In this document: positions 5,197 through 52,090 of the stretch, piece after piece
Layout of the letters: each line of letters begins with the position of its first letter
Position numbering within the stretch: position 1 is the first letter of the stretch
NCBI GenBank assembly: GCA_016929235.1
Contig: JAFGJD010000004.1
Coordinates: 171,164 to 235,163, forward strand
DNA length: 64,000 nt
Source of the DNA: Candidatus Babeliales bacterium
Lineage (GTDB): Bacteria > Babelota > Babeliae > Babelales > JABCYS01
Direction of reading: 5' to 3'
Notes under the pieces: model-generated
Seen by the model: the letters and a program-made list of their open reading frames with translations, nothing else
Databases searched by the model: none
Told to the model about the DNA's origin: nothing
Translations under genes and position numbers: made by a program

Positions 5197-5206
5197 GAGG
5201 AATTGT

Positions 5207-6176: not shown

Positions 6177-6189
6177 GGAAGGTACGGGT

Positions 6190-6600
6190 ATGCATTATCG
6201 TGGGTTCACGTTTGTTGAGGTTGTTCTGACTATTGCCTTAATTGGCTTTATTCTGACGCCATTGCTTGTAGTTCAGAATAACGTTCTACGTTTGGTGATG
6301 AAATCCAGTGATCGCGCACGACGTATCTTCATCCTTAAGAACGCGTTTTCTGAAGCAGCCATCAATGTAGATAATGAAGAAGATGTCACGAATCGTTCTT
6401 TTGAAAAACAGTATGAAGTTCCCCATATGTCATTAAAGTATACTGTTATGCCGATTGTGAAAGAGTCATCACTGAAAGGGTTTTCAGAAGTGTATCTTTT
6501 GAAAGCTTATGGTTCCTGGCAGCGCATGTATCAGGAACACTCTGAAACCATGATCAGTTTCTTATTTGTGCCTCCTAACGAGAAAAAGGAATCGTCATGA
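6190..6600 (+). CDS. minor pseudopilin (GspI-like)
   Basis: N-terminus MHYRG/FTFVEVVLTIALIGF is a prepilin motif. 136 aa, third pseudopilin in the operon. Confidence 0.65.
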   Translation: MHYRGFTFVEVVLTIALIGFILTPLLVVQNNVLRLVMKSSDRARRIFILKNAFSEAAINVDNEEDVTNRSFEKQYEVPHMSLKYTVMPIVKESSLKGFSEVYLLKAYGSWQRMYQEHSETMISFLFVPPNEKKESS

Positions 6601-7481: not shown

Positions 7482-8521
7482 AGACGCAGAGATCGGGTTA
7501 TATTCTCGTTTTGGCCCTTTTGTTGTTGACGTTAGGCATCGTGATCACAACAAATATTTTTAATACCGGATCAGTGTATAGTATGCAGACGCGAACACTT
7601 GTTGATCGTGAAAAGGCTCGTCAAGTGGCTGTAGGTGGCCTGGAGCTTGCTAAGCGTGAATTAACAATTACGCTCACTGATGAACAAAAAGAAAAGCAAA
7701 AAAATGATTCTGCGTTAGAGACTAAACTTCTTCTTGCACACCTGTTGCCTGTATTAAATCGTATGCAGCGTTTCGTGCTCAAAGAAGCGGTTGATGGACT
7801 TGATGGAGAAGTTGGGATTTGTATTAGTTCTGAGTTCGGGAAAATTAATCTAAATGTCTTGTATGATTTCAAAAATAAGAAATTTATTGGAGAAGGTAAT
7901 CCCCAGGGCGATATGAGAAAGGTTGCACAAGCGGTATTCAATAAACTTCCCAGGGCGGAACAGGATGGAATGTTTGCTGCATTTGAGCGCTTTTTAAAAA
8001 AACAGGAACAACCACTTAGTGACACGACCGAGCTGTTAAGTATTAAGGAATTTCAGCAATTTGGTAATGACCTTTTCTATCAACCGCCACTTTCTAAAGA
8101 GAGCAGGACCGTTGCATTGACTGATATATTTACCGTTGAAAGAACTACAGCAGAATTAAATCCATGGCTCTTGTCTAATTCATTGTGTATACTACTCGGA
8201 TTGCAAGCGGCAGAGGTAAATGATATTTCCAATAGGAAGTCTGAGGGTAAAAAATGGGCACAGAATTTTGTGAACAAATGGACCCTAGAAAATGATTGGA
8301 ATACTAGATTGCAACCGATTTATAAGAAAGATTTCGCAAGTCTTCCGAAGGAATTTGTTTCTCTTTTGAACACACAATTTGAATCCGGTACATTTTCTGT
8401 GCTAAGTTATGGGAAAGTTGGTAACATTACGCAACGAGTTTATGCCATTCTAGAGAAACAAACGGCGGTGCAAAAAGGGAGAGATCTCCCGTTTGTTGTA
8501 AAAAAAATGTATTGGTTTTGA
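7478..8521 (+). CDS. GspK-like minor pseudopilin
   Basis: ATGA overlap with the upstream gene. Hydrophobic N-terminus without the Glu5-type motif (MKTQRSGYILVLALLLLTLGIVI), as in GspK. 347 aa, last pseudopilin position. Confidence 0.6.
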   Translation: MKTQRSGYILVLALLLLTLGIVITTNIFNTGSVYSMQTRTLVDREKARQVAVGGLELAKRELTITLTDEQKEKQKNDSALETKLLLAHLLPVLNRMQRFVLKEAVDGLDGEVGICISSEFGKINLNVLYDFKNKKFIGEGNPQGDMRKVAQAVFNKLPRAEQDGMFAAFERFLKKQEQPLSDTTELLSIKEFQQFGNDLFYQPPLSKESRTVALTDIFTVERTTAELNPWLLSNSLCILLGLQAAEVNDISNRKSEGKKWAQNFVNKWTLENDWNTRLQPIYKKDFASLPKEFVSLLNTQFESGTFSVLSYGKVGNITQRVYAILEKQTAVQKGRDLPFVVKKMYWF

Positions 8522-8536
8522 TAAAGGGGATGAACG

Positions 8537-10174
8537 TTGCAAGTAAAAACCGAAACACGAGTTGGCGTTTTTATCATCATTGCCATCGGTATCTTCTTTT
8601 ATATGACGTTCCAGATTGGCGTCTTTCGGCTTGATCGTAGTAACTACGTCCAATACACGGTGTATTTTGAAGATGTTTCTGGATTACAGAAAAAATCGGA
8701 TATCAAAATTGCCGGCGTAAAAGTTGGGTGGGTTGAGTCGGTTGATCTTTTGCAAGATGAGATGCAGGCCAAAGCTCATATAATGGTTCAGAAGAAATAT
8801 CGTTTGCATCGTGATGCATATGCGATTGTCCGTCAGGATGGTCTGTTGGGTACTAAATACTTAGAAATTGTTCCAGGAGATCCCCTTTTGCCTGGACTTG
8901 GATCTGGTGAATCTTTGAGTAAGCCTGGTAAGTCGCCCGTTGATATCGATGAGTTACTTCAGCAGTTTAAGGATATTGCAACAAATGTAGAGGATGCGAC
9001 TGACTCTATCAGACATGCTATTGGTGGTGACGACGGAAAGACTAAGCTCAAAGAAACATTTGATGATCTTAATGCTGCCGCAGATCGCATGGCAGAATTC
9101 TCCTCAACCTTTAACAGAATTTTGACGAATAACGAAACAAATGTTGATTCCATCATGTCCGATTTCAAAAACTTTAGTCATGATTTGAAAGATGGATGGC
9201 CCACGATGCAACAAAGTATTGAACGTATTTCTGATGTAGTTGATCGTGACTTTCAACGTTTGACTGACAAGTTTGAATCAACAGCAGAATCTCTTGAGGA
9301 AGCGGCTATTCAAGCGCGCCAAGGATTACGGAGCTTTGGTGAAGTTGCAGATAAATTGAATGAGGGGCGGGGTCTACTTGGCAAACTTATCACCGAAGAT
9401 GAGACGTACCACGATATTAAGTATGCTGTTCAAGGCCTCAAAAATTATTTTGCCAAGATGGAGCGTGTTGGCATTGTCTTTGATGCGCACTCAGAAGCAA
9501 TGTGGGGTAAAGCAGAATATTTCTATGATCCGCTCGATGAAGATTTTTACATGCAGGATGCTAAGGGTTATTTTGGTGTAAGAATTCATCCAACAGAAGA
9601 TTATTTCTTTGTTATGCAAGGCGTTTCAAGTCGCAAAGGATGGATAGAGCGAGAACATATTGAACGGGTTGTTGAGCCAATTTTGATTGAACGCATTGAT
9701 GAGTCGCTTCGAATGGGTGATGAAGTGACAACAACATCTGTTCCGGTAACGATTATGGCGCCAGAACCTGGTGTAGAACATATTACGACACGTCACCAAC
9801 GAGACAGTCGTCTCAGATGGAACTTGCAACTTGCTAAGGCGTACAAGGATCTTGCGATTCGCTTCGGATTGTTTGAAAGTTCGGCAGGTGTAGCAATCGA
9901 TTATGACTTACCATTGCATTCTGATAGTTTCCGTTGGATTACCAGTATAGAATTGTATGACTTCCTTGGGGATTATCGTATTAATGATGGTAATCCTCAC
10001 CTCAAGTGGTTGAACAGGGTCTTTGTCTTCGATCATCTATACATGACCTTCGGTGCTGATGACTTTATCAGTAAACACAACGCCAATGCATTCTTTGGTG
10101 TCGGATTACGGTTTGGCGATGATGATATCAAGTATCTAGTGTCAAAAGCTGGAACTGGTTCGTTGCTGGAATAA
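8537..10174 (+). CDS. MCE/MlaD-domain protein with coiled-coil and beta-rich C-terminal extension
   Basis: TTG start 15 nt after the gspK-like stop, with a GGGGA SD-like upstream. N-terminal TM segment followed by an MCE signature (..YTVYFEDVSGLQKKSDIKIAGVKVGWVESVDL..AYAIVRQDGLLGTKYLEIVPG). A helical middle is followed by about 230 aa of alternating-strand sequence. Confidence 0.8.
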   Translation: MQVKTETRVGVFIIIAIGIFFYMTFQIGVFRLDRSNYVQYTVYFEDVSGLQKKSDIKIAGVKVGWVESVDLLQDEMQAKAHIMVQKKYRLHRDAYAIVRQDGLLGTKYLEIVPGDPLLPGLGSGESLSKPGKSPVDIDELLQQFKDIATNVEDATDSIRHAIGGDDGKTKLKETFDDLNAAADRMAEFSSTFNRILTNNETNVDSIMSDFKNFSHDLKDGWPTMQQSIERISDVVDRDFQRLTDKFESTAESLEEAAIQARQGLRSFGEVADKLNEGRGLLGKLITEDETYHDIKYAVQGLKNYFAKMERVGIVFDAHSEAMWGKAEYFYDPLDEDFYMQDAKGYFGVRIHPTEDYFFVMQGVSSRKGWIEREHIERVVEPILIERIDESLRMGDEVTTTSVPVTIMAPEPGVEHITTRHQRDSRLRWNLQLAKAYKDLAIRFGLFESSAGVAIDYDLPLHSDSFRWITSIELYDFLGDYRINDGNPHLKWLNRVFVFDHLYMTFGADDFISKHNANAFFGVGLRFGDDDIKYLVSKAGTGSLLE

Positions 10175-10206
10175 TCTGTCTCTACCATAGTCCGATAGGT
10201 TACGCG

Positions 10207-11637
10207 ATGACAATGCGGCTTATCTTCTTGTGTTATATAGGTACTTGTTGTGGGGCTCCCGTATCATTGTTGGAACAATCGGCTTATTGTCTGGGATGTA
10301 CAGTAACTATTCCTCTTACCAATGCAGGTGCGCCCGATCTTTCAAAGCTTGCATCGTACATTTACCATCTCTCGGATAGCAATGAACGAGCGCGCGCCAT
10401 AATTGTTGATGAAGTTCGTAAACGATACGGCTCTATGCTTGCTCAGATAGAACAACAATGGTTTCCAGATGATTGTTCAACAAGTGATTGTCTTGCCAGT
10501 CGCTGGTACCACGAGAAGGATGTTCCTGCGTGTGCAACGAGGCAGTATGTCTATAATTATCCAAACCCAACACAAGATAGTCTATGGTTTCTATTGCCGC
10601 ATGATGAGCATGATGTAGCCTTAGGCAACGATGCGAATTGTGCTGATCAGACTCTCAGAGCTTTAAAGTTGCTTGCATCGTATCATGCGCATGACCGTGG
10701 ACATCGTATTCGTATGTTTTCGTGCAATGTGCGTACGACTATGCAGGCCATCCATGCGTTTATCCAAGAAGAGTATGAAGATGGTATTGCGCCGCTTGTA
10801 TGTGTTACTCATCGAGAAAGCAGTCCTTTAGTACAGGAACTTGCTATGACCTATTCTGTTGATTTGTATCTTCATCTAGGAAATGGATATAATCCCGAAC
10901 ACGGTAGGGGTGTTCCGGTACTGAAAATTCCTTATCAAGAAGAACAGCATCGATCCTGGTGGTCACGCGCATTGCCAACGCTGCTTGTTGGTGGTGTGGA
11001 AAAGACAGCAACGTTTGTTAGCAAACAAGTGTTACTTGCAGCTCGTACACCGCAGGGATACACCAGAATTATGACAGCGGCGCGTTCAGTAGGTGGTGAT
11101 GTGGTAATGAATGGTCTTCATCAAACAACCCGTCTTGGTGCATATCTTATGAAGAATCCTGCCCTTGGTCATTATGCATATGCGGCGGCGGTTATTGTTC
11201 CTTTGGCATGGGATGCATACAAAGCATATAGCAATGACAGTGGTGCGATAGAGGCAGGAAGCAATAGATATTGCCACAGTGGAGGAATTACTCTGCAGAT
11301 GTCGGTTCTGAATCGGGAAAGTACATACGCAGAACTACCTAAAATGATCAAGGCATTACCCTATATTATGAGGGATATTATCGAGCATTTTCAATTTCAT
11401 GTAGTACGGGGAGGCACTTTTTGTGTTGATATAAATGAGGCATATGATCCACCATATGTGATTATGCTTGCGCCTCAACAGATGTTGCATGTTCCTGACT
11501 ATCCTGTTGTTCTATGGCCTTCTCAGATATTCTATGACCATAGAGATTCTGCTGGTTGCTATGACCAAGAAGTTGGAGAGAGTACGCGCCAATCAGAGTT
11601 ACTTGTGCGGCGTTACGCGGTTATTGTGCCAAAATAA
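10207..11637 (+). CDS. hypothetical Cys/His-rich secreted protein
   Basis: 476-aa ORF 32 nt after the MCE gene on the same strand. Hydrophobic N-terminus (MRLIFLCYIGTCCGAP). No motif recognised. Confidence 0.55.
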   Translation: MTMRLIFLCYIGTCCGAPVSLLEQSAYCLGCTVTIPLTNAGAPDLSKLASYIYHLSDSNERARAIIVDEVRKRYGSMLAQIEQQWFPDDCSTSDCLASRWYHEKDVPACATRQYVYNYPNPTQDSLWFLLPHDEHDVALGNDANCADQTLRALKLLASYHAHDRGHRIRMFSCNVRTTMQAIHAFIQEEYEDGIAPLVCVTHRESSPLVQELAMTYSVDLYLHLGNGYNPEHGRGVPVLKIPYQEEQHRSWWSRALPTLLVGGVEKTATFVSKQVLLAARTPQGYTRIMTAARSVGGDVVMNGLHQTTRLGAYLMKNPALGHYAYAAAVIVPLAWDAYKAYSNDSGAIEAGSNRYCHSGGITLQMSVLNRESTYAELPKMIKALPYIMRDIIEHFQFHVVRGGTFCVDINEAYDPPYVIMLAPQQMLHVPDYPVVLWPSQIFYDHRDSAGCYDQEVGESTRQSELLVRRYAVIVPK

Positions 11638-39629: not shown

Positions 39630-40535
39630 TTAACATGGAGGAAGTGTTCCTTGTACTATTTCCTTCAGTTGATTCAAATTAATTACGCACGATTTTTTCT
39701 CTGGAGAGAAACGGAGCCCATCTTGAAGATTGCTAAAAAGGTGGCTGTTCTCGTCTTTTAAAATAGTCAAATCAGTTAGGTATGTTTTTTGTTCCAATTG
39801 TGTAAGTAGTTGCGATGCATCACGCAGCGGCTTTCTTACTTTTTCTATAACATCAGAACATTCTGTATATGTTGAGTCAGTAATACTTGGAGTTGTTTCA
39901 TCTATATTGGATAGTGTAGTACAGATACTATTACGCAAGATGGTATTTTTACGTGATTCTTTAATGAGGGTCTGAAGGTCTGGGCAGGTTGTTGTTTTCC
40001 CCGCAATTTGTTGTTGCAGGCTATCGATAATACCTTCTTGTGTTTGAATAGTAGATTCAAGTTGTCTCATGGTTGCTTGGTCGGCTATGAGACTTGCACT
40101 ACAGGTTTCGAGATCTTGTTGTAAGTGAGAAGCATCGACATCTGTAGTTGGTACAGATCGCGGGACAGTCGCCATGAGCCGGTCGAGTGTGGTGTCAATG
40201 AATGCCTTTTGTTCAGTTGTTCCACCCGTATCGCGGGATTGTTCAATCTTAGCTTGAATTGTTTGATATTCAGTATCAGAAATTTGGCTAGCATTTTTTG
40301 TATTAGCAGCATCAAGGGAGACGGCCAATAGGTAGATTTGTTTCATAAAGAATCTACTACCTAAAAGACTGTTAAAATTGTTGCAGCCATTAGTATATGC
40401 CTGAACAATCTCCTGTGATGTTTGCGCATTTTGCACTGCAGCTCTAATCTCTTGCAATTTTATATCGGCCTGCTGGCTTAATGATGCATGTAGAAGTAAT
40501 GGCATGCATAAGAGAAGTGGGAGATATTTCTTCAT
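39630..40535 (-). CDS. hypothetical secreted coiled-coil protein
   Basis: ATG 40535 gives signal peptide MKKYLPLLLCMPLLLHA. The listed ORF to 40688 would overlap the OMP gene. The product is Gln/Thr-rich and helical. Confidence 0.55.
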   Translation of the reverse strand: MKKYLPLLLCMPLLLHASLSQQADIKLQEIRAAVQNAQTSQEIVQAYTNGCNNFNSLLGSRFFMKQIYLLAVSLDAANTKNASQISDTEYQTIQAKIEQSRDTGGTTEQKAFIDTTLDRLMATVPRSVPTTDVDASHLQQDLETCSASLIADQATMRQLESTIQTQEGIIDSLQQQIAGKTTTCPDLQTLIKESRKNTILRNSICTTLSNIDETTPSITDSTYTECSDVIEKVRKPLRDASQLLTQLEQKTYLTDLTILKDENSHLFSNLQDGLRFSPEKKSCVINLNQLKEIVQGTLPPC

Positions 40536-40551
40536 GACTGTTTTCCTTTTT

Positions 40552-42108
40552 TTAAATTGAGAATCCAGCTTTGAACCAAACTTCCCATCTGTCTGCGATT
40601 GGATTTGAGGAGCCAAATTCGTATAATCCACCAAACCCAAGGAATGGCGGAACTGCTTGATCATCCCAGTGGATTCCAATAGAACCATATAGCATGAAAC
40701 TAATCGAAGAAGGATGTAGTGCAGAGCTTAGGTCGAGATCGGATTCCTTTATTGGTTTATAGCGATCGGTATTGTTAGCTGTATCAACGGCTAGGACATT
40801 GAGATCTACATCGTTGAATATCAATCCGTAATTCCACATATGCATGTCAGCGTAACTCATGCTTTCTGCGGCGGTTCCTCCAGCTGCAGCATTGACGCCT
40901 GCAATAGCAGGGCCTTCCTCCCATTTGCATGCAAGCTCACCATCTTCTGTTTGGCTGTAGTATGAGTTGAATCCAACTTCTGCACGAAGTCGTCGATGGT
41001 TAACGACAAAGGCGGTATTGGTTTGGAAAAATCCGCCAGGTCTGATCTTCATTTTCTTGGTAAGATAGTTAATACCCGGTGATGTTGTGGTTGCTGCAGA
41101 ATCAGTAAAGACGTTGATATAGCGGCTCCATGATTTATCTTTGAGGTCAAAGGAGCGCATTTCGTCGCTTTCGAATAAATAATGACTGCGTTGATCGGTG
41201 CACCACCAGATAGATGTAGTATCATTGTTCCATATTTTGAATCCTACAGCACCGCCCCAGAGTACACCCCAGTGTTTGTTGTTTCCTATCATTGGCTCAA
41301 AAACATAGGTTGCTTGTGGTCTGTTTCCTGTTGGGAAAATAATACCAGCAAATGTAGTGCGGTAGCATTTTTGATCGCGTACAGAATCTTGTCCAACTCT
41401 AATTTCAAAATCAGAAATTCCTGTTTTATCAAGAGATCCAGGATAGATCTTGCCGTAGTTCCAGGAAGATTGATTCATGGCTGCGGCTACACTTGCAGGA
41501 TATCCTGAACGAATCGTGACATTGACTGTATTGGTTAACATTGTTTCTTGAAGGTTCATGGCATTAGAAACATGAATTATTGGAGCTGTTGTATCAATCC
41601 ACCAGCCTTTATCTTCATCATCCGAGAGCGACTGTTTGTAGTTGAGCGCCGTTCCAATAAAACTTTGTTTTGGGCTAAACGTAATGCGACTGGCAAAGTT
41701 ATAGTCTTCGGAGATGATATTAAAATTGTGTGCAAGGATATCGTAGTTATCATCTTTAAAATTTTGTGAGCCTCCTGCGTAATATGCTCCAACAGCCGCT
41801 GCAGTATCGGGATTTGGTCCTTCTGCAATAATAATTGAATTTTTATGCCATGGTAAAAAAAAGCGCGCTAAACGATCAGAGGCTGTTGTTTGTCCACCAA
41901 AAACGGTTGTCTGGAAGCATCCCCAGATCCCATTCTTTTTCCCCAACATGCGGTCGCGATATTGATTAAGATGTTCTGGGCTTCCTGTTGTATATTGCGG
42001 ACGTATAGAAAAGAAAGTATGGCTTGTTGCTTCATCAGCATGTGAATCTATGGATAATATGATTGAGGGACCTATGAGAGCAAGTGCCAAAAGTAATAAC
42101 TTCTTCAT
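40552..42108 (-). CDS. predicted major outer-membrane beta-barrel protein
   Basis: Signal peptide MKKLLLLALALIGPSIILS. 518 aa, rich in aromatic/Gly strand ends, with C-terminus ..WEVWFKAGFSI. N-terminal motif TFFSIRPQY resembles that of the 1606-2913 OMP. Confidence 0.65.
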   Translation of the reverse strand: MKKLLLLALALIGPSIILSIDSHADEATSHTFFSIRPQYTTGSPEHLNQYRDRMLGKKNGIWGCFQTTVFGGQTTASDRLARFFLPWHKNSIIIAEGPNPDTAAAVGAYYAGGSQNFKDDNYDILAHNFNIISEDYNFASRITFSPKQSFIGTALNYKQSLSDDEDKGWWIDTTAPIIHVSNAMNLQETMLTNTVNVTIRSGYPASVAAAMNQSSWNYGKIYPGSLDKTGISDFEIRVGQDSVRDQKCYRTTFAGIIFPTGNRPQATYVFEPMIGNNKHWGVLWGGAVGFKIWNNDTTSIWWCTDQRSHYLFESDEMRSFDLKDKSWSRYINVFTDSAATTTSPGINYLTKKMKIRPGGFFQTNTAFVVNHRRLRAEVGFNSYYSQTEDGELACKWEEGPAIAGVNAAAGGTAAESMSYADMHMWNYGLIFNDVDLNVLAVDTANNTDRYKPIKESDLDLSSALHPSSISFMLYGSIGIHWDDQAVPPFLGFGGLYEFGSSNPIADRWEVWFKAGFSI

Positions 42109-42272: not shown

Positions 42273-43517
42273 ATGATACGGCGTGTTAAAGGGACTCAGG
42301 ATTTTCTTGACCTAACTTTATTTAATTTTTTTATAGCACAATCAAAAGAACATCTCGCCCAATATCACTTTAATGAAATTGCGACTCCGATCATAGAACC
42401 CACTGAGCTTTTTAAACGGTCTCTCGGTTTGGAAACAGATATTGTTACCAAGGAGATGTATACTCTCAATACGGAGTCTGAATCAATCTGCTTGCGTCCA
42501 GAGGGCACCGCATCAACAGTTCGCGCATTTATTGAAAATGGTATTCAGACGGTGCCATGGAAGGTGTTTCTATGGGGGCCAATGTTTCGTCATGAGCGAC
42601 CACAAAAAGGTCGCTACCGACAATTTCATCAATTAAGCTTAGAAGTAATTGGTTCCGATTCTATAGCACAAGATGCGCATATGATCGCTATGCTTGACCG
42701 GCTCTTTTCAGATCGGTTTAAGCTTGATTCTTATGCTCTCCATATTAATTTTCTAGGGACCATGGAGGATCGTGCGGCGTTTAGAAAAATTCTTGAGAAA
42801 TTTCTTAATGAGCATGTTGATCAGATTTGTGCGACATGTAAGGTGCGTAAAGATAAGAACATCATGCGCGTGTATGACTGTAAAGAAGTGTCATGCCAGA
42901 CCCTATATAGAAAAGCGCCGGTGTTAACTGAATACCTCTCTAAAGCGTCTGCCGATGAATGGCAGCAGCTTCAGGAGTATCTTGATAGTACGAATGTAGC
43001 TTATACAGTTATGCCAACACTTGTCCGTGGCTTGGATTATTATAATAAAACAGTCTTTGAGTTTGTAAGTCCGCATCTTGGTGCACAAAGTGCGTTCTGC
43101 GGTGGTGGTCGTTATGATCATCTTGTATCTGCATTGGGAGGTAAAAAAGATCAACCTTCAGTTGGCGCAGCTATTGGCATCGAGCGCATGTTATTGTTAT
43201 TAGATCCTATCAAGGACGCATTGCCGATTTACAAAGAACCACGTCTCCATGTGATTATGCCACTTTCCACAGACCAACATACTCTTGCGTTGTTGATTGC
43301 ATATCAAACACTCCAACATGGACTATATACGGAAGTACTTCTCGAGGGTGATTCAGTTAAGAGTATGATGCGTAAAGCTAATAAGCTTGGCGCAACGTAC
43401 TGTCTATTGATTGGGTCTGAAGAGCAAGATAATAAGACTGTCAAAGTCAAACATATGACCACAGGGGAAGAAGCAACTGTTGCTCATGCAGATTTAATTG
43501 CCTATCTACAGCAATAA
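42273..43517 (+). CDS. hisS: histidine--tRNA ligase
   Basis: MIRRVKGTQDFL.., class II motifs ..LRPEGTASTVRAF.., ..FRHERPQKGRYRQFHQ.., ..GGGRYD.., and a C-terminal anticodon-binding domain. Confidence 0.95.
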   Translation: MIRRVKGTQDFLDLTLFNFFIAQSKEHLAQYHFNEIATPIIEPTELFKRSLGLETDIVTKEMYTLNTESESICLRPEGTASTVRAFIENGIQTVPWKVFLWGPMFRHERPQKGRYRQFHQLSLEVIGSDSIAQDAHMIAMLDRLFSDRFKLDSYALHINFLGTMEDRAAFRKILEKFLNEHVDQICATCKVRKDKNIMRVYDCKEVSCQTLYRKAPVLTEYLSKASADEWQQLQEYLDSTNVAYTVMPTLVRGLDYYNKTVFEFVSPHLGAQSAFCGGGRYDHLVSALGGKKDQPSVGAAIGIERMLLLLDPIKDALPIYKEPRLHVIMPLSTDQHTLALLIAYQTLQHGLYTEVLLEGDSVKSMMRKANKLGATYCLLIGSEEQDNKTVKVKHMTTGEEATVAHADLIAYLQQ

Positions 43518-44129
43518 ACGAGCCAGTTCGTTTCGTAAGACATAAAAAGTAAATGCGGTAAGTAGCACACTGTCAAAGCGGTCCAGGAGCCCGCCGTGTC
43601 CGGGAAGCAGTGATCCTGTATCTTTGATATTATTTTTTCGTTTAAGCCAGGAGACAAAAAGATCGCCAAGAAAAGCGGTGGCACAAAGCATAAGCCCATA
43701 TCCAATTCGTATAAACAAAGCTTCATGATGTGTGAGCAGTACAAACAGTGTCGTGGTAATAATTATTGCTCCTATAAGGCCTTCCCACGTTTTTTTTGGA
43801 CTAAGTCGTGGGACGAGTTTGTAGTGTCCGATTAATGTTCCAGTGATGTATGCACTTACATCAAAGGTAAAGACAAGAAGAAACAAGTATACAATTAGTG
43901 GACGATAATCAGTCCGATTGAGCGCAATGATTGTTATAAAGCCTAGTGTAGTATAGATGGTTGCGAGATTCTGGTAGCGTTTCAAGTATGGAAGCTCCCA
44001 GCCAACAATTACAATAAAGAGAGTAAATAGGAGTAGTGAAAAGATAAGTGGGCGTGGAAATATAAAAAATAGTAACAGGGCTACACCGAATGCGATTCCA
44101 GTGAGGCTGCGTTGTACGAAAGATTTCAC
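43506..44129 (-). CDS. cdsA: phosphatidate cytidylyltransferase
   Basis: CDS signature ..SWLKRKNNIKDTGSLLPGHGGLLDRFDS.. and a multi-pass membrane topology. Short at 207 aa. Confidence 0.85.
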   Translation of the reverse strand: MKSFVQRSLTGIAFGVALLLFFIFPRPLIFSLLLFTLFIVIVGWELPYLKRYQNLATIYTTLGFITIIALNRTDYRPLIVYLFLLVFTFDVSAYITGTLIGHYKLVPRLSPKKTWEGLIGAIIITTTLFVLLTHHEALFIRIGYGLMLCATAFLGDLFVSWLKRKNNIKDTGSLLPGHGGLLDRFDSVLLTAFTFYVLRNELARLLL

Positions 44130-44140
44130 GGTTTTCTTTC

Positions 44141-44983
44141 TTAGAACATGGCTGAGTAACGACGCTTATGACCAATGGCAAGCTGCTGATCCTTGTTGAT
44201 CAAGGGGAGAGCATGTGTAGCAATTTGCTCCTGAAGTTTTTGCGCTTTCTCGATGTCATTTTGCTTTTCAGCAAGCGCGCATTCAAGGCGTAAGGTTTTC
44301 ACCTCAATATTAGAGATGCTTGTTTTAAATTCATCCTTGATATGAGCAAGCCGTTGTTCGGCGGCTGTGAATTTGTTGTTGTTGAGATAGTATTCAAACA
44401 CATTAACCTCGCTCTCAAATAGCTTATTGTAGCATTGACGTCGAATTGATTTTACCTCTTTTAGATACTGAGTATTGGTTGGTTGTTCTAAGTAGGTTTG
44501 AGCAGTTTGAAGGGCTTCACGAGTCTTGGTTTGGTCTCGGTCTGGTTCTAATGTTTCGTAAAAACAGCATAGCAGCGTTTTATAGTTGACGTACTCAGTT
44601 TTATCGCTTCCTGGGTATAATGTAAGATATTCTCGATAGAATTCTTCTGCTTTGGCAAGATGTCCCAAGTCAAAACAAAGATCGGCACGTTCAAGCCGTA
44701 GTTGTTTCAGGAGATCAAGATCATCGCTATGCCCGAGCATGTACTCGATGTGTTCGAATGCCATGATCTTGTTGGTTGCTAATAACTTATTTTTTCGTTG
44801 TTCCAACTCTTCAATAGACAACTCTGTCATGAGCTTGCGTTTATGTGACGTCCGTTCCTTTTGTTGCGCACGTCGGGCGTAGTATTCTTCCTTGAGGGGA
44901 TTTGCTATTTGTGGTGGCGTGCTCTTCTTGCCATAGCATATGGCAAAAGTCAGGAGGAGTGGCACTAATAATCGTATGGACAT
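44141..44983 (-). CDS. bamD: BamD-like TPR outer-membrane lipoprotein
   Basis: ATG 44983 follows GGAGG. N-terminus ..LLLTFAICYGK is lipobox-like. ..EFYREYLTLYPGS.., ..PDRDQTKTREALQ.. and ..SEVNVFEYYLNNNKFTAAEQR.. parallel the BamD pattern (YP.S, DRD...T..A, E..VA.YY....Y.AA..R). Confidence 0.6.
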   Translation of the reverse strand: MSIRLLVPLLLTFAICYGKKSTPPQIANPLKEEYYARRAQQKERTSHKRKLMTELSIEELEQRKNKLLATNKIMAFEHIEYMLGHSDDLDLLKQLRLERADLCFDLGHLAKAEEFYREYLTLYPGSDKTEYVNYKTLLCCFYETLEPDRDQTKTREALQTAQTYLEQPTNTQYLKEVKSIRRQCYNKLFESEVNVFEYYLNNNKFTAAEQRLAHIKDEFKTSISNIEVKTLRLECALAEKQNDIEKAQKLQEQIATHALPLINKDQQLAIGHKRRYSAMF

Positions 44984-45162
44984 GGATAGCCTCCGCACAG
45001 GGGTTCATAATCATATGATCGAGAGTATAGAAAAGTTGCCGTAGTCGGTAAAGCTCGAGGCTTTTCTTGAGAAGCGTCTGCGAGTCATAGTAGGATCATT
45101 CTCGTGTGTATGGTATTCTGTGAAAAACAAAGAATCTGCCGCATGATTTGAGGTTGTGCTGA

Positions 45163-46875
45163 ATGAGAAATAAAGACCTAGAATCCCTGCTGATAACAAA
45201 AGGATTGGTGACTCAGGAACAGCTAGACGCATGTAAAAAAGAGGCTGTCGAGCAGGGGATATCTCTTGAAGAATGTTTGGTCAACAAAGGCCTGGTTAAT
45301 CCAGAGGCTCTTGCGCAGATCTATGCAGAACAAAGTGGTCTTCAATACTTTGAGGCTCTTACTGAAGATATGGCGGATCCACTTTTGCTTGCTCGTGTTC
45401 CACTGAAATTTTTACGTGATAATCATGTTATTCCTGTTAAGGTAGATGGGGATCTTGTTTTTGTTGCTGCAGTTCCCTATAACTTTCGGCCTCTTGATGA
45501 TCTTGCACTTATTTTTGGTTCGCCTAATCGTGTTGCGGTTGCGTCTTCCAAGGTGATTGTTGATAGTATTAATCGTTTTTATCCACTCGAGGGCACAAAG
45601 GAAATGCTTGAAGAGCTGGAAGAAGAACAATCAGTCGGCGACGAGGTTATCGATTTCGATGAGATTACCGAGACCGACATTCTTGGAATGGCAAGTGAGG
45701 CTCCTGTTATTAAATTGGTGAACCATATTTTGTATCAGGCAGTAAAACGGGGTGCGTCGGATATTCACGTTGAGCCATTCGAAAAAGAGGTACGTATTCG
45801 CTACCGTATAGATGGTGTTATGTATACGGTCGAAACGCCGCCAAAGCGTGTGCAAGCGGCATTAATTTCACGTATCAAAATCATGTCAAATCTTAACATT
45901 GCTGAAAAGCGAAAACCACAAGATGGTCGTATTCAAATTAAAGTAGCTGACAAATCCATTGATATTCGTGTGTCGATTATTCCGGTGACATTTGGCGAGC
46001 GCGTGGTCATGCGTTTGCTTGATAAAACGCGAGCATTCTTAGATATTGAACAGCTTGGTTTTTCTGAACGTGATCTTGGTATTGTCAAAAAGTGTATAGA
46101 GCGTTCCAATGGTATTTTCTTTGTGTCCGGTCCGACTGGTTCTGGTAAAACGTCGACTTTGTACTCGATCTTGAACCGATTGAATTCAACTGAGGTCAAT
46201 ATAATGACTGTTGAGGATCCAGTTGAATACCAGATGACAGGAGTTGCGCAGATCCAAGTTAAGGAAAAGATCGGTCTGACATTTGCAGCTGCGCTTCGTT
46301 CCATCTTGCGACAAGATCCGGATATAATCATGGTTGGTGAAACACGTGATCAAGAAACGGCACAGATTTCTATTCAGGCTGCGCTTACCGGTCACTTAGT
46401 GTTGAGTACGATTCATACCAATAATGCTCCCGCAACCATTACTCGTCTGCTCGATATGGGTATTGAACCATTCCTGATAGCGTCGACGGTTGTTGCCATT
46501 GTGGCGCAGCGATTAGTTCGCCAATTGTGTAATGACTGTAAGCAAGCATATAAACCAGAAGCTGCTCAAATTAAACAACTTAGACTTACCGATGCAGAAG
46601 CGGCTCAGATTACCTTCTACCAGCCTGTTGGTTGTCATGAATGCGAAGAAACAGGATATAAGGGCCGTTTTGCAATCTTCGAGGTTATGGAAATGACGCC
46701 AGCGGTTGCTCAATTGACGATGCAGCAAGCTGATGCGATTGCAATACGTAAGCAAGCATTGGCAGATGGCATGGTGCTTCTGATTACACATGGTCTTGAA
46801 AATATAAAAGAAGGCAAAACAACGATCGATGAAGTCTTGGCAGTTGCTAACATGGAAGGTGACATTGACGTCTAG
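45163..46875 (+). CDS. gspE: type II secretion / type IV pilus assembly ATPase (GspE/PilB family)
   Basis: N-terminal T2SS-E_N domain, Walker A GPTGSGKTS, Asp box, Walker B IIMVGETRD, His box LTGHLVLSTIHTN, and a tetracysteine CNDC...CHEC. Confidence 0.95.
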   Translation: MRNKDLESLLITKGLVTQEQLDACKKEAVEQGISLEECLVNKGLVNPEALAQIYAEQSGLQYFEALTEDMADPLLLARVPLKFLRDNHVIPVKVDGDLVFVAAVPYNFRPLDDLALIFGSPNRVAVASSKVIVDSINRFYPLEGTKEMLEELEEEQSVGDEVIDFDEITETDILGMASEAPVIKLVNHILYQAVKRGASDIHVEPFEKEVRIRYRIDGVMYTVETPPKRVQAALISRIKIMSNLNIAEKRKPQDGRIQIKVADKSIDIRVSIIPVTFGERVVMRLLDKTRAFLDIEQLGFSERDLGIVKKCIERSNGIFFVSGPTGSGKTSTLYSILNRLNSTEVNIMTVEDPVEYQMTGVAQIQVKEKIGLTFAAALRSILRQDPDIIMVGETRDQETAQISIQAALTGHLVLSTIHTNNAPATITRLLDMGIEPFLIASTVVAIVAQRLVRQLCNDCKQAYKPEAAQIKQLRLTDAEAAQITFYQPVGCHECEETGYKGRFAIFEVMEMTPAVAQLTMQQADAIAIRKQALADGMVLLITHGLENIKEGKTTIDEVLAVANMEGDIDV

Positions 46876-47374
46876 ATGTAGTAGCGGTGTTTCGCTTCTT
46901 GAGACTGTTGTTGTGTGTGCATTGCTTTCACTGATTGTTACGCTGAGTTTTCCGCATATTACTCCGTTTTTCTATGAGTCAAAGGTAAAAACCGAATTAC
47001 ACATGCTCATGAATGCATGTGAGTTGCAACAGCAGCGTGCTGTGATGGAGCAACGTTCATGTACTATCGTGCTGCATCCTGAATGTCATGCGTACTCATA
47101 TGATGATATGACCGTGACGTTCCCACCAGAGGTGCGATTTCATCTTGGTGATGGAATCAAAGGTCCTCCAGCGGCACCGAGAAATTTCCCCTCCGATGTG
47201 GTAACCTTTGAGCGGCATACGATTACCTTCTATGCAGAAGGAACAATACAAGCAGGGAGTATCTACTGTAGTGATCCAGCGCATCGATGTCAGTATGCGT
47301 TGACAATTCCAGTTGAAGGTCCTCCGCGGGTGTGTCTATATCGGTATAATGGGCGCTGGATTGCGATAACATGA
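46829..47374 (+). CDS. additional pseudopilin (GspH/FimT-like)
   Basis: Prepilin motif ..SSG/VSLLETVVVCALLSLIV. The start is uncertain: ATG 46829, or GTG 46859 / TTG 46865 inside the gspE 3' end. The stop overlaps the next ATG (ATGA at 47371-47374). Confidence 0.65.
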   Translation: MKSWQLLTWKVTLTSRCSSGVSLLETVVVCALLSLIVTLSFPHITPFFYESKVKTELHMLMNACELQQQRAVMEQRSCTIVLHPECHAYSYDDMTVTFPPEVRFHLGDGIKGPPAAPRNFPSDVVTFERHTITFYAEGTIQAGSIYCSDPAHRCQYALTIPVEGPPRVCLYRYNGRWIAIT

Positions 47375-50076
47375 GTTACATAAAAACAATCATTAAAAGT
47401 TTTAATGCCATTGCGCTTGGTATGTGTGTGGCGTTGTATCTTTTGCAGTTTAACGGCACGATTTATTCAGTGGTGCAGCAGCGATTGCAAGAGTATTTGA
47501 GCTCTGCCTTTGATTGCTCATTTTCATGTCAGGTATCTGAGATTAATTTTTTTACGCCACATCTTGTTCTAGATAATCTTTCTGTGGTTCCTCGTTCAGG
47601 AGCTAGAACATGGTCATGGAGGAGTAAAAGAGCAGTAGTTACAGCTCCATGGTGGAAGATAATAACGAAGCGCATCGGAGAGTTAGATATTACGCTGTAT
47701 GGCTATACGGCTTTTTCTGAAATGGATCTTGGTTCTCTTGCAATTTTGCCACATTATCAAAAAATTTTTGGCGCAGAAGGTATTGATGTCCCTGTATTTT
47801 TGAAGCGTTTATCTATACCTAATGGGACCTTTGAATGTGCTGAGTTGCGAACTGGTATCACTTTGAATACATCCGTTCATAGCACGTTTGCAAGCGTTGG
47901 TGATTTTATGAAAGTAACAATATACCCAACGGGTGGAACAATCACGCGCCTTGGGACAACATATGCACATACGCTTTTGGGTTCAATTCGATATATTGGG
48001 GAGCTAGAGCCAAAAATTGACTGCTCTTTAACTGTTGAACTTCCACAGTTACAAGGAGAACAACGATGTTTTGTGGTTGGATCATATGCACATAATGATC
48101 TGGAATTCCGTGTGTATACCAGTGACCGTGACTTACTTATCGAGCCGCTTAGTATTGATCGGCATGGTCATTATATGTGTCGTGCAAAGCTTCCATGGAG
48201 TTATGTTAGTTCAGTGGTATTTGATCAGTCTGTTGGCGATGGAGCTGGATCATGTGTGCTACAACTTCAAGGGTCTATGTCAGATCCTCTCCATACAGCG
48301 CATGGTATGTGTTCGTTGTCTGATGTGCTAATGGGTTTTGTACCTATTACTAAAGCGTGGTGTTCTATTTCAGCATGCGAGCAGTCGTGGAAGGGTATGA
48401 TCGAATGTTCCTGTACGGGCAACAACGAAATAATCGGGTCGTGGGAGTTGAGCCAGGAAGGCAATGGGCTTGTATCCTTGACAAATAAAACTGTATTAGG
48501 GCTACCGAGTTTGTTCCATTATAGGATTCAACCTCGTGATCTTATGGTACAACTTTCGTGTAATACTCAAGGAGATGGGGAGCTCGTTGGTATCGGTCAT
48601 ATCACGGATGCGGTGTTGGATACCGTTTCTTCTGCAACTATTCAGGGCAAAAAAAATGGGAGGGAAGTCGCTGGTGAAGTGGAATGGCTAGATCGACATC
48701 TTGCTGTACGGGCAAGTGTGACTGATACAGTGCACATTAAGCATGCCAGCTATGCAGAGGGGAATAAATTACTTGCACTACTGTCATCAGACGATACGAG
48801 TTGCCGTTTAAGTGGTGATGTTGATTATGCATTATTGCGTTCCTGTGTACCTCGTTTAGTGCGAGATGATGTTGTTGGTGAAGGCCGATTTCATGTCGAG
48901 ATTGAACCGTATGATACTGTGATCTCAGGCTCTGTTACGTTACAAGACGGGATGATCAAAGTTCCACGTATGTACAATGTGGTTGACGGGTTCTCCATGA
49001 ACTTCCAATTTGATCCTGTTCATCGTAGCGCAAAAATAAATGATTTGGTGTGTTCTCTCCATCGTGGTAATGTTGCTATATCATCTGCACGTGTACTGTT
49101 TGATACTTCGTATACCCCAACATTTTTTCATGTTCCACTAAGCTTTGACCAGTGCTTTGTGAGCTGGCAGCGTGATTTATTTGCGGTAACATCGGGTCAT
49201 CTGATGATACGTGATCATCCGATTTCAAGTATGGAGATTGACGGCACCATTGTGTTAGATCGCTCGCAATCAAAAGGTAATATCATGTCGGGTGATATGT
49301 CGTATTCATTCTTTATGTCTCCCGGCAGCGCATTAGGATTCAATCCGTTTATGAATGTATTTATTGAGACACGGCATCCATTGATCGTTGGAACGTCATT
49401 ATGGGATGCGGAAGCTATGATGCGTGTATCTTTACATGGGCCATTAGAAAAGTTAGCGGTATTAGGAACGATAGAGCTGCTTTCTGGTAAGATCAAGTTT
49501 CCGTATAAACCGCTTACCGTGACGCATGGACGCTTAGAGTTGGTGCCATATCGTCTAGAAAATCCTGGCATTGAGCTGACGGCCAAGGGTCGTATTAAAA
49601 AATACGCAGTAACGATGCGTGTTGTGGGGACATTGGAAGATCCGCATATTATGTTTGAATCAAGCCCTGCGCTTACTGAAGAACAAATTATAGCATTACT
49701 GCTTGCGGGATCTGAAGAGAGCTCTTTGAGCATCTTGATGCCGGCATTGATCATGCAGAATCTTCAATATATTTTGTTTGGACCGGCACAGTCGCAGGAA
49801 AAGCTTGAAGAATATTTTAGGGGATTACTGAAGCCGTTAAGTTATGTTCGGTTTATTCCAAAGTTTTCTGATCAGTCGGGGCGTGGGGGATTAAAGGGTA
49901 TTATAGAAGTAGATGTGAGTGATCATTTGACTGGTCGCATCGAGCAAGGATTTTCATTGTCCGAAGATACGAGGTTTGAGGTTGACTATCAGTTGTCAGA
50001 TGATATTAGTCTCCGAGGGATAAAGGATGAGCGTGGAAACCTTGGTGGTGAAGTAGAAATGAAATGGAAATTTTAG
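47371..50076 (+). CDS. tamB: TamB/AsmA-like translocation and assembly module protein (DUF490-type C-terminus)
   Basis: N-terminal TM anchor (AIALGMCVALYLL) and a long beta-rich body. C-terminal ..GTLEDPHIMFESSPALTEEQIIALLLAGS.. and the terminal strand pattern are typical of the TamB DUF490 region. Confidence 0.7.
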   Translation: MSYIKTIIKSFNAIALGMCVALYLLQFNGTIYSVVQQRLQEYLSSAFDCSFSCQVSEINFFTPHLVLDNLSVVPRSGARTWSWRSKRAVVTAPWWKIITKRIGELDITLYGYTAFSEMDLGSLAILPHYQKIFGAEGIDVPVFLKRLSIPNGTFECAELRTGITLNTSVHSTFASVGDFMKVTIYPTGGTITRLGTTYAHTLLGSIRYIGELEPKIDCSLTVELPQLQGEQRCFVVGSYAHNDLEFRVYTSDRDLLIEPLSIDRHGHYMCRAKLPWSYVSSVVFDQSVGDGAGSCVLQLQGSMSDPLHTAHGMCSLSDVLMGFVPITKAWCSISACEQSWKGMIECSCTGNNEIIGSWELSQEGNGLVSLTNKTVLGLPSLFHYRIQPRDLMVQLSCNTQGDGELVGIGHITDAVLDTVSSATIQGKKNGREVAGEVEWLDRHLAVRASVTDTVHIKHASYAEGNKLLALLSSDDTSCRLSGDVDYALLRSCVPRLVRDDVVGEGRFHVEIEPYDTVISGSVTLQDGMIKVPRMYNVVDGFSMNFQFDPVHRSAKINDLVCSLHRGNVAISSARVLFDTSYTPTFFHVPLSFDQCFVSWQRDLFAVTSGHLMIRDHPISSMEIDGTIVLDRSQSKGNIMSGDMSYSFFMSPGSALGFNPFMNVFIETRHPLIVGTSLWDAEAMMRVSLHGPLEKLAVLGTIELLSGKIKFPYKPLTVTHGRLELVPYRLENPGIELTAKGRIKKYAVTMRVVGTLEDPHIMFESSPALTEEQIIALLLAGSEESSLSILMPALIMQNLQYILFGPAQSQEKLEEYFRGLLKPLSYVRFIPKFSDQSGRGGLKGIIEVDVSDHLTGRIEQGFSLSEDTRFEVDYQLSDDISLRGIKDERGNLGGEVEMKWKF

Positions 50077-50550
50077 CGCATATACACAATATGGGAGCTT
50101 ACATGCGCGCGAATGACTTTCCCTTGGTCTTTTGTTGCTTTTCAATGTTGTGTGGACGTGGATATTCAACCAGATTCACCATTACAGTACGTTACACATA
50201 TACCATGTTGTAGATGTTAACGATGTGATGAAACGAGAAGCGATGTTGTTCCGTCTATTTTCGAAAATCGTATTTGCTATGATCTGGCGAGCTTAGAGGA
50301 GGACGTAAGGAGGGGGGCATAGTTTATCTGCTCGCGCGATCCGGCGCTTGTTTGATCTTGAGACAAATGAGTTTCTTGCTGAGCGTGCCCGCGAGCGCCT
50401 AGGCGCTTTGCTGCAGCAGGACTTTGAGAATAAATTTAAAGGACAATCTCTTGAATCATGTCGACAATTGGTGGTCTTTAGTATAGGAGTTGTGGGAGCA
50501 TTGTTTTTTATGAACAATTTTTTGTAGTGCATAAGAGAGGAAAGGACGGT

Positions 50551-51147
50551 ATGAAATGCTGGTATGTATGTGTAGTTCTTTGTACTATTTATGCTCAGGC
50601 AGTTGATGTGCATTTTACATCATCAACTAAGCTTAGAAACGAACTGTGCCGCTATATCGACCGTGAACAAAAAAGTATCAATGCCGCGCTTTATTGTTTT
50701 ACCGATGTCCATGTTGCAAGGTCATTAGTCCGCGCGCACAAACGGGGTGTCTCTATTACGTTGCTTGTATGCAAGACGGCGCTCGAAGGGGAATGGACCA
50801 AGGTTCCTGATATTGCTACTTATGATATCCCGGTATTGGTATATTATGGTGATGGGATTATGCACCATAAGTTTTTTATATTTGGATCCAATGATCGACA
50901 TAAATCATGTGTATGGACAGGGTCATACAATCCTACACATGCTGCTACGTCAAAAAACTGTGAGAATGTGATCATCGAAGATGATATCAAAGTTGTCCAT
51001 GCATACGAGCGTGAATTTAAGCGTTTGTGTAGGCACAAAAATACTAAACAGTATCGTCAAAAAGTAGTGCAAGCATCTCGGATTGATACTTCGTTTGTAA
51101 TTCCTCGTGAGATAGAGGGAAGGTTACTCATGAGACCGGCTGCTTAA
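50551..51147 (+). CDS. secreted phospholipase D/Nuc-like (single HKD) protein
   Basis: ATG 50551 follows AGAGGAAAGGA. Signal peptide MKCWYVCVVLCTIYAQA. HKD region IMHHKFFIFGSND...VWTGSYNPT...NCENVI parallels Nuc 'MHNKFMVVD...GSFNWT...N.EN'. Confidence 0.75.
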   Translation: MKCWYVCVVLCTIYAQAVDVHFTSSTKLRNELCRYIDREQKSINAALYCFTDVHVARSLVRAHKRGVSITLLVCKTALEGEWTKVPDIATYDIPVLVYYGDGIMHHKFFIFGSNDRHKSCVWTGSYNPTHAATSKNCENVIIEDDIKVVHAYEREFKRLCRHKNTKQYRQKVVQASRIDTSFVIPREIEGRLLMRPAA

Positions 51148-52090
51148 GTCGCTTGATTGCTGTCTCAAAATCTTTTGGCACTGGGCATTCAAATGAATAT
51201 TCTTTCTCATTAAATGTAAATGCAAGTGTATGCGCATGAAGTGCATGTCGCTTAATGAGTTTGGATCCGGTTCCGTAGGTGGTGTCTCCTAGTAGGGGAT
51301 GCCCAAGCGCGGCTAGGTGGACACGAATTTGATGGGTGCGTCCTGTGGCAGGGACACATTCTATGAGGGCTGCGTTTTCAAAGTATTGTATTACCTTGTA
51401 AAAGGTTTGGGCAAAGCGAGCTGTTTTACGCGCTTTCTCTGGAACAACGTGAGTCATTTTATGTTTATAGACACGGTGTCGATCAATCCACCACGAGATT
51501 GTTCCTGATTCATCTGGATGTCCCTGAACTAATGCGAGATATGTTTTTCTGATTTTACGCTCTTTAAACAATTCTCCAAATATCATATGTGCATAATTTG
51601 TGCGTGTGATCACCATAATCCCCGAGGTGTTCTTATCAAGGCGATGTACGATGCCAGGACGAGCAGTATCACCTATCTCGCGTATATCTTCGAACTTAGT
51701 TAGGAGCCAGTCTACTAGAGTTGCATCATGGGGTTTGGTTGTGGACGCGTGTGTGATCAGGCCGGCTGGTTTACAGATAATTAAAAAATGCCCATCTATA
51801 TGGAGTATTGGAATGTCTAGATTTTTGGGAAGTTCCTGGGGAGTAATAATGCTTTTTTCCTGCGGGAAAGTGACCGTTATCACATCATTCATTTTCACTA
51901 GTGTGCTGATCTTTGTGATGATTTTGTCATTGAGTTTGATGAGGCCACGTGTAAAACATGACTTAAAAAAGCTTCTTGAATGACTAGGAAACCGCTTAGA
52001 GACTACGATGTCTATGCGGTGCTGGTCATCATCATATGTCGCGGTAAAGCTATGAACTGATTCTGGCGTTGGGATCTCGTTTTTCTTCAT
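51128..52090 (-). CDS. rluD: RluA-family pseudouridine synthase (RluD-like, with S4 domain)
   Basis: S4-like ..SRSFFKSCFTRGLIKLNDKII.., catalytic HRLDKNTSGIMVI and ..GRTHQIRVHLAALGHPLLGD.. Start set at ATG 52090 (320 aa). The listed ORF to 52294 would overlap mgtE. Confidence 0.85.
   Translation of the reverse strand: MKKNEIPTPESVHSFTATYDDDQHRIDIVVSKRFPSHSRSFFKSCFTRGLIKLNDKIITKISTLVKMNDVITVTFPQEKSIITPQELPKNLDIPILHIDGHFLIICKPAGLITHASTTKPHDATLVDWLLTKFEDIREIGDTARPGIVHRLDKNTSGIMVITRTNYAHMIFGELFKERKIRKTYLALVQGHPDESGTISWWIDRHRVYKHKMTHVVPEKARKTARFAQTFYKVIQYFENAALIECVPATGRTHQIRVHLAALGHPLLGDTTYGTGSKLIKRHALHAHTLAFTFNEKEYSFECPVPKDFETAIKRLKQPVS

Follow-up and report, generated by a model that had tools for sequence, protein, structure and literature searches.

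An overlapping gspE, pseudopilin and tamB gene block conserved across the phylum Dependentiae

We have analyzed a block of three overlapping genes in a 64-kb stretch of chromosome from a Dependentiae (TM6/Babeliales) genome, the whole of which we call the window. The block encodes a type II secretion system (T2SS) ATPase of the GspE/PilB type, a small prepilin-like protein and a large TamB-family protein (Table 1). An earlier, sequence-only reading of this DNA had described three open reading frames (ORFs) joined by overlapping stop and start codons, and all three ORFs and both junctions were recovered at the positions given. The gspE and pseudopilin genes overlap by 47 nt, with the gspE stop codon (TAG) at 46873-46875, and the pseudopilin and tamB genes by 4 nt, with the TGA at 47372-47374 lying across the ATG at 47371-47373. 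Overlaps occur in 12 of the 34 co-directional neighbor pairs of the window (35%). As the genes overlap, co-transcription of gspE, the pseudopilin gene and tamB is likely. The gap upstream of gspE (44999-45162) is likely the promoter region of the operon and contains one sigma-70-like match at 45067-45096. A promoter and terminator scan of 44800-51300 returned sites no more frequently than in shuffled sequence and, being at chance level, is uninformative on operon structure.

The ATPase matches the Pfam families T2SSE (470.7 bits, E=3.2e-141) and MshEN (51.7 bits, E=8.7e-14), and is 62-68% identical to GspE of other Dependentiae/Babeliales, its best named relatives. It scores 628.2 bits with the NCBIfam GspE model (cut-off 630.25) versus 620.4 bits with the PilB model (cut-off 675.65), and may be of either type. 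Two tandem MshEN-type motifs are present at its N-terminus (residues 1-57; 45163-45340), reading LESLLITKGLVTQEQL... and LEECLVNKGLVNPEAL... This region reaches 33.7 bits with the NCBIfam cyclic-di-GMP-binding motif (cut-off 38), and GspE may be regulated by cyclic di-GMP.

The 181-residue protein has the class III signal of a prepilin. Its sequence reads SSG↓VSLLETVVVCALLSLIVTL, with a hydrophobic helix following SSG↓VSLLE and predicted cleavage after G20 (arrows mark the cleavage site). The residues at positions -1 and +5 relative to this site (G20 and E25) are kept in at least 90% of an 80-sequence alignment of the family, and the canonical signal G↓F(T/S)L(I/L)E is seen in most of the orthologues at 41 other loci. 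The canonical Glu5 is gone in some members, for example SLLLN at locus L021 and SLLIN at L031. The only in-frame start codons ahead of the conserved glycine are ATG 46829, TTG 46844, GTG 46859 and TTG 46865, the last with GGAAGGTG directly before it; translation may truly begin at any of these down to TTG 46865. All four fall within the end of gspE, as proposed earlier, at 11-47 nt before its last base rather than the 10-47 nt then given.

Family-level profiles detect this protein unevenly. It scores 15.7 bits with Pfam N_methyl (PF07963; cut-off 21.2), a family matched by 24 of 42 pseudopilin orthologues (E<=0.01), while Pfam GspH (PF12019) is matched by 8 of the 42. No equivalog-level match was found for it in NCBIfam, where GspH (TIGR01708) gives 16.7 bits (cut-off 80) and ComGD (NF040982) 35.6 bits (cut-off 70). 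An AlphaFold model built with the 80-sequence alignment has a pLDDT of 93 and a pTM of 0.80, and shows a long N-terminal helix followed by a β-sheet domain; a model built with a 2-sequence alignment (pLDDT 36) was discarded. A Foldseek search of the PDB placed only V. cholerae EpsH, P. aeruginosa XcpH/FimU and E. coli GspH among its 12 top matches, with probabilities of 0.57-1.0 and target-normalised TM-scores of up to 0.63, after which values drop sharply to unrelated noise. In profile-profile comparison with hhalign, 135 columns of the family align with the family of the GspH-like gene at 5625-6176 (probability 98.4%, E=7e-15). The GspG, GspI and GspJ families resemble it only up to the end of the N-terminal helix of about 50 residues. 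The proposal of an additional GspH/FimT-like prepilin after gspE is thus upheld by signal, fold and profile alignment alike, and the comparisons identify the 181-residue protein, on sequence grounds, as a paralogue of the GspH-like gene. Dependentiae have a full G-H-I-J-K set with this protein as a sixth pseudopilin.

In a library of 1.84 billion representative proteins, the family accounts for 318 representatives at 50% identity (E<=1e-10). Among the best 150 of these, no fusion of the pseudopilin to TamB or GspE was found; all are stand-alone proteins of 115-223 residues. When the pseudopilin profile was compared with PDB sequences, only matches to the N-terminal pilin helix (geopilin, PilA) were meaningful. 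The top matches, to designed 'Pizza' propellers, were spurious, as they arose from a 20-residue repeat in which no single stretch was significant. A competence-related role, suggested by the ComGD-like match and the NucT-like PLD neighbor, was rejected because both matches fall far below their cut-offs. No prepilin peptidase gene was identified among the part of the window ORFs that was scanned.

The 901-residue protein had been read as TamB-like, with a membrane anchor and a DUF490-like C-terminus, and the profile search bears this out. Residues 570-900 match PF04357 (DUF490) with 84.1 bits (cut-off 22.4, E=1.6e-23) across profile positions 14-378 of 381, and all 5 aligned Dependentiae orthologues match the same family. 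This TamB domain is the sole Pfam match at E<=1, and no match to T2SSN/GspN was found at that threshold. The hydrophobic stretch AIALGMCVALYLL at residues 13-25, kept in the alignment consensus, is predicted from sequence to form an inner-membrane anchor. With the NCBIfam TamB equivalog (1,240 positions), the protein reaches 10.6 bits (cut-off 825), and the TamB profile found no solved relative among PDB sequences. Orthologues from the 51 Dependentiae loci described below are 26-41% identical over most of their length, with a few short partial matches higher. Taken together, the 901-residue protein is most likely an orthologue of TamB and not of GspN.

No Omp85-family gene adjoins tamB in the window, and none lies within +/-8 kb in three relatives with precomputed Pfam annotation; an Omp85 gene in the tamB operon is usual in the family but not required (PMC4494059). 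The expectation that tamB is normally paired with tamA applies mainly to Proteobacteria: TamB occurs in nearly every phylum that has an outer membrane, a range far wider than that of TamA, and many phyla have TamB and BamA only (PMC4494059). In Borrelia, TamB binds BamA (PMC5582053, PMC11361582). As TamB without TamA is common outside Proteobacteria, a window without tamA is expected.

A word-based homologue search with the TamB and pseudopilin queries yielded little beyond one relative at 28% and one at 68%, and the gene-order survey was therefore anchored on GspE matches and the TamB alignment. A close relative, a 1.1-kb metagenome fragment with 68% identity, contains the end of gspE, the pseudopilin gene and the start of tamB, with identical overlaps of 47 nt and 4 nt. 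In two of three genomes examined through GspE homologues, a divergent bamD is followed by gspE, a gene of 168-169 residues, tamB and a PLD gene; the third (Noda2021) has an insertion of three opposite-strand genes past gspE. We then scanned one genome per species with the TamB alignment, which yielded 51 loci, all from Dependentiae, and located neighbors by searching six-frame ORFs with the window proteins and the pseudopilin profile. The block, in which cdsA and bamD diverge from gspE, the pseudopilin gene, tamB and the PLD gene, is conserved across these loci. The arrangement is therefore not peculiar to one genome.

The pseudopilin gene lies directly upstream of tamB in 41 of the 45 loci, all from other species representatives, with at least 700 nt of sequence upstream of tamB (40 within 800 nt, 41 when the frameshifted tamB of L052 is included). 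Thirteen loci, including the window, have a spacing of -4 or -1 nt, and most others one below 60 nt. In the 36 loci with at least 2 kb upstream of the pseudopilin gene, gspE is less than 150 nt away in 27, 150-800 nt away in 3, at least 3.6 kb away in 2, and not seen upstream in 4; the pseudopilin start falls within gspE in many loci. By a uniform definition of adjacency (a gap of at most 800 nt), gspE and the pseudopilin gene are adjacent in 31/38 loci. The same count gives 30/34 for bamD-gspE, 26/33 for cdsA-bamD, 36/48 for tamB-PLD, 30/42 for PLD-rluD and 29/30 for rluD-mgtE. Gene order is thus conserved to the same extent between functionally unrelated neighbors, such as rluD-mgtE and bamD-gspE. 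Since adjacency and overlap of stop and start codons are normal for this phylum, they establish the operon and not a joint mechanism. Three features stand out beyond this background: the pseudopilin gene sides with tamB, it is redundant with the GspH-like gene of the main pseudopilus operon, and a second junction of this kind exists between gspK and an MCE gene. We found no earlier description of a gspE-pseudopilin-tamB operon of Dependentiae in the literature.

The pseudopilin is absent from four lineages that keep tamB (L022, L036, L041 and L046); in L036, tamB starts 46 nt past gspE with no pseudopilin between them. In the closed genome of Noda2021 (AP025250; L038/L004), the pseudopilin is split over two frames (L038 7369-7943), with profile positions 1-96 in one and 113-169 in another, and would represent a pseudogene or an assembly error. 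This loss in four lineages and frameshift in a fifth, with tamB kept in all five, indicates that the core role of TamB is independent of the pseudopilin. Broken frames were also seen in 'MFD' metagenome-assembled genomes, in tamB (L052 3236-5919; L051) and in gspE (L012 5546-7263); these are probably sequencing or assembly frameshifts and not real pseudogenes. Thirteen of the loci (L007, L011, L016, L018, L019, L020, L032, L033, L034, L041, L047, L048 and L053) come from genomes titled 'uncultured Pseudomonadota bacterium', which are placed in Dependentiae by the gspE-pseudopilin-tamB block and by protein identities.

Table 1. Genes and regions of the window discussed in the text (+, forward strand; -, reverse strand)
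Feature	Length	Coordinates	Strand	Basis
gspF-G-H-I-J-K, main pseudopilus operon		3976-8521	+	Pfam T2SSF, T2SSG, N_methyl
gspF		3976-5196	+	Pfam T2SSF
gspG		5174-5638	+	Pfam T2SSG; NCBIfam GspG above cut-off
GspH-like		5625-6176	+	position in gspF-K operon
GspI-like		6190-6600	+	position in gspF-K operon
GspJ-like		6597-7481	+	NCBIfam GspJ below cut-off
GspK-like		7478-8521	+	NCBIfam GspK below cut-off
MlaD/MCE-domain protein	545 aa	8537-10174	+	Pfam MlaD 1.3e-18; NCBIfam MlaD, MCE below cut-offs
cdsA, phosphatidate cytidylyltransferase		43506-44129	-	Pfam CTP_transf_1 E=2.4e-42
BamD/YfiO-like TPR lipoprotein		44141-44998	-	Pfam YfiO E=4.1e-13; TPR repeats; lipobox-like FAIC near N-terminus
Divergent intergenic region	164 nt	44999-45162	.	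sole non-coding gap ahead of three overlapping genes
gspE, GspE/PilB-type assembly ATPase	570 aa	45163-46875	+	Pfam T2SSE and N-terminal MshEN
Extra GspH/FimU-class minor pseudopilin	181 aa	46829-47374	+	class III signal; AlphaFold/Foldseek; hhalign
TamB-family (AsmA-like) protein	901 aa	47371-50076	+	Pfam TamB/PF04357 C-terminus; N-terminal anchor
PLD-superfamily protein, single-domain, Nuc/NucT-like		50527-51147	+	Pfam PLDc_2 2.5e-19

The main pseudopilus operon lies about 40 kb from gspE within the window and has, past gspF and gspG, another four prepilin-type genes in the order H-I-J-K. We surveyed it in metagenome sequences anchored on GspF, which gave 80 loci, and its gene order is conserved in those that are long enough. 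An MCE gene begins 15 nt past the GspK-like gene, and follows it directly in 26 of the 31 loci with downstream sequence (for example L058, L062, L063, L065 and L069; the exceptions are L060, L061, L067, L105 and L135). The observation that both pseudopilin loci end in a gene of a lipid-transport superfamily, with the second junction at 8521/8537, therefore holds for the phylum as well as for the window. No MlaE or MlaF gene adjoins the MCE gene. The MCE protein consists of a membrane anchor, one MCE domain, a long helical region and a C-terminal domain. No recognisable gspL, gspM, gspC, gspN, gspD or gspO was found in 3976-11637, and no secretin in the 64-kb window or among the conserved proteins of ~950 and ~430 residues encoded upstream of gspF. 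These two belong to a group of three genes found beside gspF across Dependentiae (57-3866; for example L058 2037-10006), none with a Pfam match: ~950 residues (57-1613, cut by the window start), ~430 residues (1606-2913) and a divergent gene of ~320 residues (2910-3866). For a gene of 476 residues past the MCE gene (10207-11637), neither a Pfam match nor a homologue at any of the other loci was found.

On the divergent side of gspE, both the bamD-like gene and cdsA are confirmed by Pfam on the opposite strand, in agreement with the envelope-biogenesis neighborhood suggested earlier. Downstream of tamB, the small PLD-superfamily protein has a probable signal peptide, and its best NCBIfam match is the nuclease NucT, below cut-off, rather than phospholipid enzymes. 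Upstream of hisS, two genes of 352 and 518 residues (39630-42108) encode proteins with signal peptides and no Pfam match; the longer ends in ...WFKAGFSI, like a β-barrel outer-membrane protein, and unannotated proteins of similar size occur at this position in L004 and L005. The gene content of the window is otherwise ordinary for a Dependentiae chromosome (ftsA, ftsZ, secA, tRNA synthetase genes and mutL). All 2-kb bins of 1-64000 have a positive GC skew and the cumulative skew climbs steadily, which places the window wholly on one replichore with no origin or terminus inside.

On balance, we lean towards reading this locus as a conserved Dependentiae operon from which a T2SS ATPase, a further GspH-class pseudopilin and TamB are expressed together, each in its standard role. 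The operon would be transcribed from the region between bamD and gspE, and GspE would serve as the assembly ATPase of the T2SS or type IV pilus-like machine of the phylum. The prepilin would be cut after G20 by a prepilin peptidase, and its N-terminal helix would hold it in the inner membrane; it would then become part of the pseudopilus or be attached to it. TamB would be an inner-membrane-anchored groove protein that crosses the periplasm, carries phospholipid and/or aids the assembly of outer-membrane proteins, and docks on BamA rather than TamA. The ATGA overlap would couple translation of the pseudopilin and TamB. What links the two would then be that a small, compact genome expresses two envelope-spanning machines together and in proportion, with the gene products presumably acting independently and no new conduit formed.

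Several observations weigh against such independence. Where gspE is apart from tamB, either through three inserted opposite-strand genes (L038, L040) or through another upstream context (L015, L019, L029, L044), the pseudopilin gene stays with tamB in every rearranged lineage, and the two are often set by themselves, as a separate unit behind genes of the opposite strand (L015, L029, L038, L040). No surveyed locus has the pseudopilin gene beside gspE while tamB is elsewhere. The main operon is already complete for G-H-I-J-K, and hence the additional GspH paralogue needs explaining. The second junction between a pseudopilin and a lipid-transport gene, gspK-MCE, is also conserved. Finally, AsmA-like proteins can be true parts of a T2SS, as GspN demonstrates: GspN/PulN, long an orphan T2SS gene, was recognised in 2025 as a predicted AsmA-like β-taco protein needed for T2SS-dependent surface localisation of lipoproteins (PMC12802150). 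True physical coupling of the pseudopilin and TamB, whether of the GspN kind or with a pilin-fold partner of TamB, is suggested by gene order but is less likely than not.

In the form closest to GspN, the TamB-family protein would double as a T2SS accessory, its groove shielding lipoprotein acyl chains or other hydrophobic segments during passage between the inner membrane and the secretin. The additional pseudopilin would be an adaptor tying the pseudopilus or assembly platform to TamB, with a similar part for the MCE protein encoded after gspK. GspN itself, encoded in T2SS clusters, sets the precedent. The pseudopilin gene and tamB form an operon in 41/45 species, in many with translational coupling, two independent pseudopilin/lipid-transporter junctions are kept across the phylum, and unconventional partners are plausible because the gspF-K operon has no recognisable gspL, gspM, gspC or gspN. 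However, this evidence is gene order alone, in a region where the background conservation of gene order is equally high. No fusions were seen among the best 150 of the 318 family representatives, and five lineages keep tamB with the pseudopilin lost or frameshifted. The protein itself, with 901 residues, a DUF490 end and no Pfam T2SSN/GspN match, has the character of a TamB orthologue. We therefore regard this form of coupling as somewhat unlikely. The broader proposal that the pseudopilus machine is wired to both intermembrane lipid-transport systems, with the GspH-class pseudopilin on the TamB groove and the GspK end on the MCE tunnel, appears unlikely.

The pilin fold could instead have been recruited as an inner-membrane-anchored subunit of the TamB bridge that no longer works in a pseudopilus, resembling YnbE/YdbL of YdbH, with the adjacency to gspE a historical leftover. 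This would account for the fidelity of the pseudopilin gene to tamB rather than gspE in the rearranged lineages, including the four in which the pair stands alone, for the separate GspH-like gene of the main operon, and for the loss of Glu5 in L021 and L031. Retention of Gly-1 and Glu+5 in at least 90% of the 80 members argues for continued prepilin-peptidase processing and pilus-type assembly, though, and the protein has the usual GspH/FimU fold. In 27/36 loci the distance to gspE has stayed within 150 nt, with the pseudopilin start inside gspE in many. We consider a dedicated TamB partner of this kind quite unlikely. The sequence-only reading had also raised the possibility that TamB and/or MCE replace the secretin as the outer conduit of the pseudopilus machine, since neither pseudopilin locus is accompanied by gspD and the window contains no secretin gene. 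The window covers just 64 kb of the genome, and part of a contig of at least 321 kb, though, and a comparative study of TM6 that counted T2SS components among the core genes reported two copies of gspD in all genomes analysed (PMC4776705), which makes a substitute needless. Moreover, TamB and MCE proteins are periplasm-spanning lipid conduits and do not form outer-membrane pores (PMC11014939). This proposal is highly improbable.

The gene order thus hints at, without proving, a link between secretion and outer-membrane building in the parasitic phylum Dependentiae (TM6). If the coupling were real, one ATPase-driven piston would serve both protein secretion and the transit of lipids, lipoproteins or other hydrophobic cargo through the periplasm; the GspN principle would extend to TamB itself; and, in bacteria that depend on a host and have reduced envelopes, a pilus-type motor would be tied to the bulk movement of envelope lipids. 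The route of phospholipids and lipoproteins to the outer membrane and the partners of AsmA-like bridge proteins are under active study, and here a phylum-wide coupled pseudopilin-tamB pair together with the gspK-MCE junction offers a natural second case after GspN. The proposed coupling is specific enough for testing, with a defined mature pseudopilin of 160 residues on one side and TamB on the other. If it is not real, the locus usefully cautions against reading joint function into genes that a compact genome keeps overlapping and in a conserved order.

Comparison with known systems places each part of the locus near a familiar one. GspN is a protein of about 250 residues with a Pfam family of its own, T2SSN, whereas the window protein has 901 residues and a DUF490 C-terminus and does not match T2SSN. 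It resembles GspN/PulN/EpsN in belonging to the inner-membrane-anchored AsmA-like groove superfamily and in sharing a transcription unit with T2SS core genes. Its gene follows gspE and a GspH-like pseudopilin gene rather than gspM. With TamB of the TamA-TamB system (TAM), it shares the DUF490/TamB domain and the N-terminal anchor, although at about 900 residues it is shorter than E. coli TamB (about 1,260 residues). In the TAM comparison, the upstream partners in the window are a pseudopilin and gspE, and the operon has no Omp85 gene. The locus agrees in this respect with Borrelia and many non-proteobacterial phyla, which have no TamA and in which BamA is the presumed partner (PMC4494059, PMC5582053).

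The pseudopilin shares with GspH/EpsH/XcpH and FimU/FimT the class III signal peptide, the long N-terminal helix and the GspH-type β-sheet domain, its best structural matches being EpsH (2qv8), XcpH (9a1f), FimU (4ipu) and GspH (2knq); as with the FimU/FimT pair, two paralogues occur in one genome. It differs from this class in its very low sequence similarity, with 10-18% identity to solved structures and scores that miss all of the NCBIfam equivalog cut-offs, and in the setting of its gene, which lies away from the remaining pseudopilin genes, in an overlap with gspE and coupled to tamB. The YdbH-YnbE-YdbL system of E. coli may offer a further parallel: an AsmA-like bridge protein of similar size (YdbH has about 880 residues) is co-encoded with small envelope proteins. 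There, the small partners are a lipoprotein and a periplasmic protein encoded downstream, whereas in Dependentiae the small partner is of the prepilin type and is encoded upstream.

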